Origin: a virus
Lineage: Duplodnaviria; Caudoviricetes
Virus record (IMG/VR): IMGVR_UViG_3300048801_000006
Span: 1 to 62,260 of that record
Direction: 5' to 3' (one strand)
Length of the DNA: 62,260 nt
Positions within the stretch are counted from its first letter, which is position 1. Each line of letters begins with the position of its first letter. Shown in pieces: positions 1,110 to 5,921 of this stretch. Position numbers and translations under genes: made by a program. Below the pieces are notes generated by a model. It worked only from the letters and a program-made list of their open reading frames with translations. It did no database searches and was not told where the DNA came from.

Positions 1110-4100
1110 ATGGGCTGGGGTGGACGGCGACCGGGCTCCGGCCCGAAGAAGAAAACCAACCCGCAGCGTGAGCGCGTGGTCGCGGAGACCAAGATGTCCC
1201 CGCGACCGAGCGCACCGGCAGAGCCGAAAGCCGACCCCGCCGCCGTCCCGGGCGTGGACGTGCGGGCGTGGGCCACCTTCCTCCCGGAGCTGGAGGAGCT
1301 GAGCCGCAAGTATGCGATCCAGCAGCCGCGCACCGCGGCGAACTGCCCGTTCAGGTTCCCTGACTTTCCGGAGGCTGCTGTCCCGAAGGACAAGAGCTTG
1401 ACGATGGCGATGGACAGCGGCTTGAGCAACGCCCTGACCTACAACGCCAACGCTTGGCTGCAAGGACCGGCGCTGGACGCCATGCCCGGAGAGGGCCTCC
1501 TGTTCCTCGGCTACACGTTCCTCGCGGAGCTGGCGCAGCGCCCGGAGTATCGGGTGATGAGCGAGACCATCGCGGACGACGCCACGCGGGAGTGGATCGA
1601 CTTCGACGTGGTCGGCGACGAGACCGAGCAGGAGGACGAGCGACGGAGGCAGGAGGCTGACCCGGCTGGCGAAGCGGAACGGCAGGCTGATCCGGATGAG
1701 CGGATGAAGCGGCTCGCGGCCAAGGGCAAGCTCGACAAGGTCAAGGCGCTCAAGGACGACCAGCTCCGGCTGAACGTCCGCGACCATTTCTACGAGATGT
1801 GCCGCAACGACGGCTTCTTCGGCCGCTCCCACCTGTACCTCGACATCTGGACGGGCGGAGTCGAGCCGAGCCCGGATGAGCTCAAGTCATCGATCGGCAG
1901 CGGTCGCGATCCGGCCAGCGTCACCAAGGTCACGAAGGACTCGTTCCGCGCGCTCCGGACGGTCGAGCCGGTCTGGACCTACCCGCTGATGTACAACGCC
2001 ATCGATCCGCTGCGCGCCGATTGGTACAACCCGCAGAGCTGGTACGTGATGGGCAAGGAGATTCACTGCTCTCGCCTTCAGACGTTCGTCGGCCATCCGG
2101 TCCCGGACATGCTCAAGCCGGCCTACGCGTTCGGCGGGCTCTCGCTCTCTCAGATGGCGAAGCCCTACGTCGATATCTGGCTCCAGACCCGGCAGTCGGT
2201 CGCGGACCTGATCAAGAGCTTCTCCGTCATGGTCCTGTCCACGGACTTCGGGACGACCACGCAGCCCGGAGCCGGCGGCTCCCTGCTGGCGCGCGTGGCG
2301 ATGTTCAACATGCTGCGGAACAACCAAGGCACGTTCGTCATCAACAAGAACACCGAGGACTTCAAGAACGTCACCGCGTCACTGAGTGGCCTGCACGAGC
2401 TGCAATCTCAGGCGCAGGAGCACATGGCGTCCGTGCACCGCATCCCGCTCGTCAAGTTCACCGGCATCCAGCCCGCAGGCCTGAACGCGTCGAGCGAGGG
2501 CGAGATCAAGACCTATGACGACACCATCGCGGCGTACCAGATGCGCTTCGAGGACCCGAACCTGCGCAAGATCGTCAACTTCCAGCAGCTCTCGCTGTGG
2601 GGAGAGATCGACCCGGAGATCACGTTGCGCTGGCAGCCGCTCCGCGAGATGACGCAGGCGGAGAAGGGCCAGAAGGAGAAGGACGACTCCGAGCGGCACC
2701 AGAAGTATGTCGATATGGGCGCGATCTCGCCGGCCGAGGTCCGCAAGACGATCATCGAGGACCCTGACCTGCCCTACACCGCGCTCGATCCGGAGGACGT
2801 CCCTGATCTCGCGTCTGAGGAGGAGGACGGCCTCGAGCCGGAGGGTGGCCGCCCCGATCCCAAAGCGGGAGGCGAGGAAGGCGGCGAGCCGCAGGGAGGC
2901 GGGGCTAACGATGCCGACCTCCCTTTTGGCGCGACTGACGCTGCGGAGTTCAAGGAGGATGAGCATCCTCGCGGGCCTGACGGCAAGTTCGGCTCCGGAG
3001 GCGGCGGCGCTGGGAAGGGCACTTCGATGCCCGACATCCCGGATTTCCTCAAGAAAAACAAAGGTGGGCCCGGCGGCGCTGAAAAGGGTCAAACGCTCAA
3101 GATGCCGCAGTTCGGCCTGACGCCGACGCCATACGCGAATCACCAGCCCGGCACCGGCTTCAAGCTGCCGCCGCGCAAGCCCATGCCGAAGTCGAGCGGT
3201 GAGCCCGGAGACGCCGGAAGCCTCGTCGCGTTCGGCAAGGACGCGCACGGGATCAAGGAGATCAACGGCGTCAAGTTCTCCGCGTGGGACCCGCCGAAGG
3301 ATTGGGCTGACGTCTCCGGTCAGGCGGAGATCAGCGAGCCGCCGATGCCGGAGCTGCCGAAGGGCATGATGATGTCCACCGGCTGCGTGGTCCGCGAGAA
3401 GGACGGGCGAGTGTGGCTCATGCGGCCCGCCGGCGGCTTCGGAGGCTATGACCAGACCTTCCCCAAGGGCGGGCTGGAAGAGGGCCTCTCCGGTCAGGCG
3501 AACGCCATCAAGGAGGTCTACGAGGAGACCGGGCTCAAGGTTAAGATCACGGGCTTCGCCGGAGACCATGAAGGCGACACTACCATCAGCCGCTTCTACT
3601 TCGCGGAGCGGGAGGGCGGTGATCCGGTGCACGCGGGCGGAGAGGCGGAGGGCGTGATCCTCGCGCCGCCGAGCGCGCTGCCCGGCCTCCTGAACCGGAA
3701 GCGGGACAAGCAGATCGCGGAGTCGCTCTCACCGGCCGCGCAGAAGGCGGACGCGCTCGACCCGGCCGACCTCAAGCAGATCGGCAAGAAGATGGGCACG
3801 AACGAGGGAGGCACCTTTGAGGACAAGGCCGGCAACAAGTTCTACATCAAGCGCCCGCAGACGAAGGCTCACGTCCAGAACGAACTGGCGGCAGCGCGCC
3901 TGTACCAGCTCGCGGGCGTCAACACGCTCAACTACCGTGAGGTCAAAGGCGGGAACCACGTCGCGACAGACTTGGAGAAGCTCGACAAGAAGAACGTCGC
4001 TGATCTGACGCCGGCCGAGCGGAAGGAGGCGACCAAGGACTTCGCCATCCACGCGTGGCTCGGAAACTACGACGCGGCCGGGACGGGCGGAGACAATCAG

Positions 4101-5921: not shown

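Follow-up and report, generated by a model that had tools for sequence, protein, structure and literature searches.

The internal proteins of phage T4 and its protein Alt carry a capsid-targeting sequence that is cut off by the gp21 prohead protease, and head proteins of phiKZ and SPN3US are cut at x-x-E motifs. Encapsulin cargo-loading peptides are mostly C-terminal and bind a known pocket of the shell, and polymorphic toxins contain demarcation ('pre-toxin') motifs, such as VENN in CdiA and DPxGL in Rhs. Among the closest described systems are the phage-type polyvalent proteins, effectors fused to portal or MuF proteins that are predicted in the main text of Iyer et al. 2017 (PMC5512222) to be packaged and injected. 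We analyzed a 62,260-nucleotide (nt) stretch of a virus (Duplodnaviria; Caudoviricetes), positions 1 to 62,260 of IMG/VR virus record IMGVR_UViG_3300048801_000006, hereafter the window, which is 86% complete according to CheckV. Its portal-cargo fusion gene (1110..5921, + strand) is a single open frame of 1603 amino acids (aa) encoding, in this order, a portal, tag 1, a NUDIX domain, a protein-kinase-fold module, tag 2, a spacer and an ADP-ribosyltransferase (ART) domain. The subject of this report is the tag, a short peptide that occurs twice in this protein.

The fusion protein clearly belongs to the phage-type polyvalent proteins. It combines at least two effector domains in one polypeptide (here NUDIX, kinase fold and ART) and is fused to a portal of the Phage_portal_3 family, with MuF, protease and capsid genes downstream. 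Pfam families that we found together with the tag are those that Iyer et al. defined: ART-PolyVal, LPD3, PBECR1 and InPase (PMC5512222). A recurring header tag with a paired protease site lies outside the description in the main text of that paper. The tag motif is not mentioned by Jamet et al. 2017 on MuF toxins (PMC5576092), and literature searches yielded no published description of it.

Tag 1 (FKEDEHPRGPDGKF plus a Gly run) spans aa 614-633 (2949..3008, + strand) and tag 2 (FEEGKHPRGPDGKF plus a Gly-rich run) spans aa 1116-1136 (4455..4517, + strand), as read from the frame translation and pattern matches. Both contain the core HPRGPDGKF, located at aa 619-627 (nt 2964-2990) and aa 1121-1129 (nt 4470-4496). 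Across the six frames of the record these two sites are the sole matches to HPR...G.F and to [FW].[ED]..HPR. Likewise, the tag DNA pattern has two forward matches in the 62,260 bases and none in the reverse direction or in the reversed control. The 27-nt cores differ at four positions, every one synonymous. From the aromatic residue over 21 codons, 48 of 63 nt are identical, and the differing codons comprise five synonymous and seven non-synonymous changes. This synonymous divergence indicates that the repeat is kept at the protein level and is no recent DNA duplication. An earlier note on this DNA, made from its sequence alone, had argued for protein-level selection on the same grounds, and its coordinates (A608 at nt 2931, D610 at 2937, A1104 at 4419 and H1121 at 4470) are correct. 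Tag 1 comes after the acidic tail of the portal and tag 2 after the kinase-fold module, where it opens the block that ends in ART. The note had placed tag 2 right before the ART, which does not hold, as about 310 residues (aa 1137-1447) separate the two.

With the whole protein as query, 475 long portal fusions matched at E ≤ 1e-10. The top 120 of the 475, query included, were combined with the portals of two cultured phages to give a set of 122 proteins; these are Pseudomonas phage Orisa03 (PP179327), whose fusion has the order portal, tag and ART, and Xanthomonas phage PhiXhv-5 (PV764598). The tag is present one to four times in nearly all of the 119 long homologues (the best of the 475, query excluded). 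The 122 proteins hold 218 HPR tripeptides, nearly all in the context D-x(1-3)-[FW]-x-E-x-[KD]-H-P-R-x3-G-x-F-x-x-G-G-G, within which the tag proper measures about 17 residues ([FW]-x-E-x-[KD]-H-P-R-x3-G-x-F-x-x-G). In a 33-position profile built from 123 aligned tag copies, E, H, P, R, G and F are invariant. Many proteins (P0015, P0020 and P0025 among others) contain a variant with a GQPGNAG insertion, in which HPRGQPGNAGQFG replaces HPRxPDGKFG; in most of them it is the first tag after the portal. PB1-like portals were considered as further tag carriers and rejected, as the aligned stretch differs from the motif. The close relatives L121, L122, L124 and L126 encode cargo-less portals that end near the tag position, while the relatives L115 and L116 have one tag and different cargo. 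Cassettes are therefore gained, lost and swapped at the header, in keeping with the junction for cargo swapping that had been suggested for this gene.

The tag is found far beyond the portal family. A degenerate DNA pattern detected at least 112 stretches with 122 matches in IMG/VR, where we estimate about 10 matches by chance under uniform base composition. Among the IMG/VR matches listed, 117 of 122 show at least four of six consensus features that are absent from the pattern itself. The same pattern gave a bimodal result in bacterial and archaeal genomes: true tags account for 78 of 126 matches, and another 41, with two or fewer of the six features, look like chance matches. The genomes with true tags are labeled Actinomycetota, Firmicutes, Proteobacteria, Verrucomicrobia, Elusimicrobia, Chloroflexota, Spirochaetes, Melainabacteria, Planctomycetes, Saccharibacteria and others. 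An actinobacterial variant, R-L-R-L-R-x-K-x-x-P-F-[RS]-E-[DG]-L-HPRD-x-RGRF, which the consensus score under-counts, was observed in Kitasatospora and Streptomyces contigs (L132, L180 and L198), near the N-terminus of open reading frames (ORFs) of 348-385 codons measured from stop to stop. A profile search of 1.84 billion cluster representatives retrieved 4,802 at E ≤ 1e-3, 511 at E ≤ 1e-10 and 21 at E ≤ 1e-30, the top match being a 7,334-aa protein with 18 matched stretches.

Other searches returned little. Against isolated phages, tblastn with a 40-aa tag segment gave just 14 weak records, the method being too insensitive, which is why the DNA pattern scans were adopted. A word-index search for shorter tag-bearing proteins yielded 40 candidates, none of which scored, reflecting a limit of the index and not absence of such proteins. 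The tag profile has no real match among all PDB chains (best Cyclin-Y, E 0.32), and no Pfam or NCBIfam model covers the tag at aa 600-650 or 1100-1140 of the fusion protein, in the other tag regions or in the small tagged ORFs.

What the tag accompanies is diverse. Pfam was run on 111 of the 112 distinct tagged viral ORFs, one 59-aa ORF being left out, and no family is common to all 111. The commonest is Phage_portal_3 (36 ORFs), followed by NUDIX (11), ADPrib_exo_Tox and LPD3 (9 each), DUF2213 and Zeta_toxin (6 each), Phage_portal_2 and PBECR1 (5 each), Topoisom_I (4), Acb1 (2) and Portal_Mu and Phage_Mu_F (1 each), with further families at smaller counts. The cargo seen with the tag includes NUDIX, ART, kinase, RNases, topoisomerase IB, Acb1 and Zeta. 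In the proteins checked, the tags fall between Pfam envelopes, as in the order portal-tag-PBECR1 of L020, L061 and L073 or for the tags of P0137; in P0135 one tag touches the N-terminal edge of an ART envelope. Hence the motif is linked to domain boundaries in homologues, and the proposal in the earlier note that a conserved cassette opens each cargo block is borne out by the comparison.

The position of the tag within proteins points the same way. Of the best 145 profile matches, 62 have their first tag no more than 60 residues from the N-terminus, and only 3 have their last tag that close to the C-terminus. Successive tags in these matches are spaced by a median of 262 residues (minimum 61, 5th percentile 132). 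The kinase-fold module is preceded by a tag in 101 of 105 proteins, in 67 of which the tag ends no more than 40 residues from the module. Moreover, 37 of the 112 viral ORFs are stand-alone, with a tag at most 70 residues after the upstream in-frame stop. Most of these have a leader of 10-45 residues. In L033 the sequence M-K-Q-W directly follows a stop codon, placing the start 3 residues before the aromatic residue, so the tag forms the very start of this protein, and L036 is almost as clear a case. A His-rich, beta-strand-like leader (H-I-Y/H-x-H-x-x-D) abuts the tag in several of the small stand-alone ORFs (L011, L014, L051, L054, L084 and L111), and others share an L-x-R-L-R-x-Y-D leader. 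Overall, the sequence comparisons identify the tag as a very widespread cassette that is conserved at the protein level and opens modules.

Upstream of each of the two tags in the window lies a candidate protease site of the form A-x-D. Candidate site 1, A608-T-D610 (2931..2939, + strand), is three residues before tag 1, and A1104-S-D1106 and A1110-D-D1112 (4419..4445, + strand) precede tag 2. A further candidate, A100-M-D102 (TMAMD/SG, the slash marking the putative cut; 1407..1415, + strand), is found in the N-terminal region of the portal. The pattern A[MLFTSIV]D[ASRVE], chosen after the sites had been seen, was counted 17 times across four head proteins, against about 2.6 expected, and 3 times in 27 other scanned ORFs. 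The DUF2213 protein has 11 sites (0.94 expected by shuffling), the portal fusion 4 (1.23), MuF 1 (0.21) and the capsid protein 1 (0.23), and two of the four sites in the portal fusion are those upstream of the two tags. Within the portal family, A.D occurs no more than 9 residues upstream of 166 of 202 distinct tags and D no more than 5 residues upstream of 201 of 202. In the diverse viral sample, D occurs within 6 residues upstream of 101 of 128 tags and A.D before 31 of 128. The A-x-D that the earlier note had made part of the cassette is therefore upheld for the portal family and not for the wider sample; going by these counts, it is a feature of this phage group and not of the tag.

Indirect support for cleavage at A-x-D comes from the other head genes. 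The major capsid protein (10419..11534, + strand) contains the site QLAMD51/AAGF (nt 10563-10571), a putative propeptide boundary that divides a divergent N-terminal stretch from the conserved mature body. AMD is kept at this boundary in 11 of 13 aligned capsid proteins, and five more distant homologues have AYD, AMD, AMD, GFD and, in L073, VIN. The capsid protein is a homologue of that of Pseudomonas phage E217, and its residue 58 aligns with residue 7 of the deposited 317-residue E217 chain. The E217 capsid sequence reads GSAMD64-S65-N66 and its model starts with residue 66; residues 1-65 are described as invisible and as residues that 'could be cleaved during maturation' (PMC10329688). AMD-S is also present in the E217 portal (SVAMDS) and in the E217 DUF2213 protein. 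In the related phage Pa193 the first 93 residues of the portal are reported to be without density and were not detected using liquid chromatography-mass spectrometry (PMC11456595).

The likely protease is encoded by the DUF2213 gene (7779..9302, + strand), whose product consists of a predicted assemblin-fold protease domain (aa 29-196) and a scaffold-like tail with the 11 A-x-D sites. In the domain, H96, S148, Y151, H178 and R186 are invariant over 36 sequences. An AlphaFold2 (AF2) model (predicted local distance difference test, pLDDT, 84.2) was compared with known structures. Foldseek ranked herpesvirus proteases and T4 gp21 on top, at a weak E of 2e-3 to 2e-2, and VIA-align superimposed the model on T4 gp21 (5jbl_A) with Z 11.0 and a root mean square deviation of 2.9 over 129 residues and on varicella-zoster virus protease (1vzv) with Z 10.1. 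Our best reading of the model is a head maturation protease with a scaffold-like tail that would be chopped by the same enzyme. In the E217 and Pa193 papers (PMC10329688, PMC11456595) the DUF2213 homologue is described as a putative scaffold and the word 'protease' is never mentioned. Given the enrichment in head proteins, the conservation of the capsid boundary, the first ordered residue of E217 and the adjoining assemblin-fold protease gene, A-x-D is a credible head-protease site.

The IMG/VR locus L073 has Asn where the window has Asp, namely in the capsid (VIN/A), before the tag (QAQN/EW) and in D-N-E repeats of the DUF2213 tail, in ORFs at 5732-6814, 7327-8787 and 9723-11693 of that locus. 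This single case may represent co-variation of protease specificity with the junction sequence.

The best reading of these data is that the tag is a retained N-terminal handle for packaging, retention or ejection. More specifically, we assign a probability of roughly 0.55 to the proposal that the cassette is a module header of head-packaged polyvalent proteins, composed of a protease site (here A-x-D), a retained tag and a Gly-rich linker. During prohead maturation, D610 and D1106 (or D1112) would be the residues behind which the DUF2213 protease cleaves. All 12 portal subunits would thereby each give rise, within the capsid, to a NUDIX-plus-kinase protein and an ART protein, both retaining the tag at the new N-terminus on a flexible tether. 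There the tag could act as a docking handle for a common transport step, that is recruitment to the head, retention in it or exit with the DNA. The diversity of the cargo suggests that the shared need is most likely such transport. The stand-alone tagged proteins indicate that the functional unit is tag, linker and enzyme and that the tag does more than guide cleavage. Since the header is common to the cargo cassettes, it would also let them be exchanged.

Several points weigh against this module-header proposal. Both cleavage at the junctions and any docking role are steps that we infer, and the enrichment of A-x-D was counted with a post hoc pattern. Twenty-seven of the 128 viral tags have no D in the six upstream residues. 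Tags also co-occur with other head machinery such as Peptidase_S78_2 and GP7-type capsid proteins. In L053, for example, the protein that comes after one with six tags is a fusion of a 2H-phosphoesterase with Peptidase_S78_2, and L009 encodes a lambda-like terminase and a GP7-type capsid protein. Tags without a nearby D and the presence of other protease and capsid families imply that the cut site is no universal part of the tag. A DUF2213-like gene is visible in 36 of the 112 viral loci, many of which are just a few kilobases long. The portal of P0109 bears an Acb1-type module directly, without a tag, and the portals of E217 and Pa193 have a long C-terminal extension that is likewise untagged. 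Finally, docking onto a fast-evolving head protein is hard to reconcile with the near-invariance of H-P-R, G and F among phages whose capsid, portal and protease families are unrelated. Such near-invariance across differing head families points to a conserved partner, self-association or an intrinsic mini-fold.

Part of the evidence would suit a tag that serves processing only, as an exosite or extended recognition element for assemblin-fold head proteases with no role after cleavage. An acidic residue is conserved 1-4 residues before the tag in 193 of the 202 copies from the family and in 98 of the 128 viral ones, the tag occurs at every junction of multi-module proteins, and it is fused on either side of DUF2213 domains. 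Yet L033 clearly, and L036 nearly, start at the tag with nothing upstream to remove. As the tag is moreover found with different protease families and in the 27 viral copies that have no nearby D, we consider a purely processing role unlikely.

Alternatively, the tag could act in the infected cell by recruiting a conserved bacterial factor, e.g. a chaperone for refolding cargo that has been threaded through the tail, or by directing injected cargo to one site common to hosts. If the partner were a conserved host factor, the invariance of H-P-R, G and F across phages of many phyla with unrelated head proteins would be accounted for, and mature cargo is predicted to retain the tag. We regard this explanation as quite improbable, because the variety of cargo favors a shared transport need over a shared host target and no host partner was indicated by any of our analyses.

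It is also conceivable that the fusion stays uncleaved, with the cargo tethered to the portal crown and the tag and Gly run forming a structured spacer or a legacy of recombination. Uncut C-terminal portal extensions can be imagined, a shared header would favor cassette recombination, and Pa193 portal residues beyond 528 were not modeled (PMC11456595). However, a tether to the portal would keep effector enzymes from reaching the host, and A-x-D sites are located exactly at both junctions. A mere spacer would not hold six invariant residues over 4,802 clusters, and the synonymous divergence speaks against selection at the DNA level. An uncleaved fusion is accordingly very unlikely in our view. 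Last, the invariant His, Glu and Arg of this short motif at module boundaries recall the autocatalytic motifs that free toxin tips in other polymorphic toxins, but self-processing by the tag is hardly credible given that no conserved catalytic domain accompanies it, that it lies at the extreme N-terminus of stand-alone proteins and that a dedicated protease with matching sites is encoded nearby.

In the fusion gene, the Phage_portal_3 domain covers aa 138-530 (1521..2699, + strand; Pfam E 2e-65), and the PHROG portal profile extends to aa 595. The next residues, aa 595-610 (window 2892-2939), correspond to a conserved piece, [DN]-D-A-x-[LV]-P-F-G-A-T-D, that precedes the first tag in many family members and may be the true C-terminal tail of the processed portal. 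The NUDIX domain follows at aa 756-864 (3375..3701, + strand), assigned by Pfam (E 7.4e-12) and a match to Ap4A hydrolase in the PDB.

The protein-kinase-fold module spans aa 871-1107 (3720..4430, + strand), a region without a Pfam match, and is bracketed by tags in homologues. Its AF2 model, built with 26 homologues, reached a pLDDT of 88.1. The top Foldseek matches are exclusively protein kinases (38 at E ≤ 1e-3), with Helicobacter pylori CtkA ranking first. A Gly-rich loop is invariant, as are a Lys, Glu, Asp, Asn and Asp over 27 sequences. According to the model the term kinase, used for this region in the earlier note, is appropriate at the level of the fold.

The second cargo block opens with an Ala/Lys/Glu-rich spacer (aa 1137-1447; 4518..5450, + strand) in which no Pfam family was found at E < 0.08. 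It ends with the ART domain at aa 1448-1597 (5451..5900, + strand). Pfam ADPrib_exo_Tox matches aa 1451-1591 with an E of 7.7e-4, which is sub-threshold for Pfam. The assignment is backed by sequence matches in the PDB to solved ART toxin domains (6dre_B, E 1.2e-11; Vis, 4xzj_A, E 9.4e-4).

Hint or intein Pfam matches in some portal homologues were considered as domains for cargo release and rejected, as the inteins sit inside the portal domain. They occur in P0033, P0061, P0070, P0109, P0111 and P0118 (Pfam Hint_2 or Intein_splicing), end with ...FFANG[IV]L[VT]HN followed by S, and are inserted at a point that corresponds to SVHRIPLVKFTGIQP of the portal in the window. Downstream of the fusion gene, the head module also comprises a MuF-like head morphogenesis protein (6151..6948, + strand) with one RLAMD/A site and a minor head gene (9361-10374).

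Effectors fused to portal or MuF proteins were already known. What the tag may add is a view of how cargo modules are delimited, released and addressed. Its probable role is to mark those proteins that are released by cleavage within the head and travel into the host. As a header of 17 residues found in thousands of clusters and many phyla, it would permit a sequence-only listing of proteins that are probably carried in heads. The header combined with the A-x-D sites provides a testable cleavage code for the DUF2213 protease, and the tag is a candidate signal for packaging or ejection. We further raise, as a tentative possibility, that nearly all tailed phages use the tag as an address for cargo, analogous to the encapsulin cargo-loading peptide and independent of the capsid, portal or protease family. 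If so, a tethered tag would suffice for any protein, whether fused or stand-alone, to enter the prohead and to be delivered to the host along with the DNA. Phage heads would then be programmable protein injectors, and effectors delivered by virions would be readable from sequence.

Among characterized virions, a close counterpart is the head module of the Pbunavirus phages E217 and Pa193, which have a homologous portal, DUF2213 protein and capsid protein. The E217 capsid, portal and DUF2213 proteins carry AMD/S, and the portal extension of both phages is devoid of the tag. The predicted system further resembles that of the T4 internal proteins and Alt in that head cargo would be destined for injection, that the protease is of the assemblin fold and that a candidate cleavage motif with an acidic end is repeated across head proteins. 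Unlike the T4 peptide, which is upstream of the cut and removed, the tag follows the predicted P1 residue at a distance of 1-4 residues and would be kept. The predicted P1 residue is Asp here, whereas it is Glu in motifs of the T4 and phiKZ type. Furthermore, the T4 targeting signal is lineage-specific while the tag spans very distant phages.

Encapsulin cargo-loading peptides share with the tag that a short conserved peptide and a flexible Gly-rich linker are joined to diverse enzymes, and the encapsulin shell itself has the HK97 fold. They differ in position, as the tag is N-terminal to each module. Like the pre-toxin motifs, the tag is a short peptide in front of each exchangeable module, at what is here predicted to be a processing point. 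Pre-toxin motifs are part of bacterial toxins that are secreted and have delivery scaffolds of their own, whereas the tag is found in phage head-associated proteins and stands before every module.

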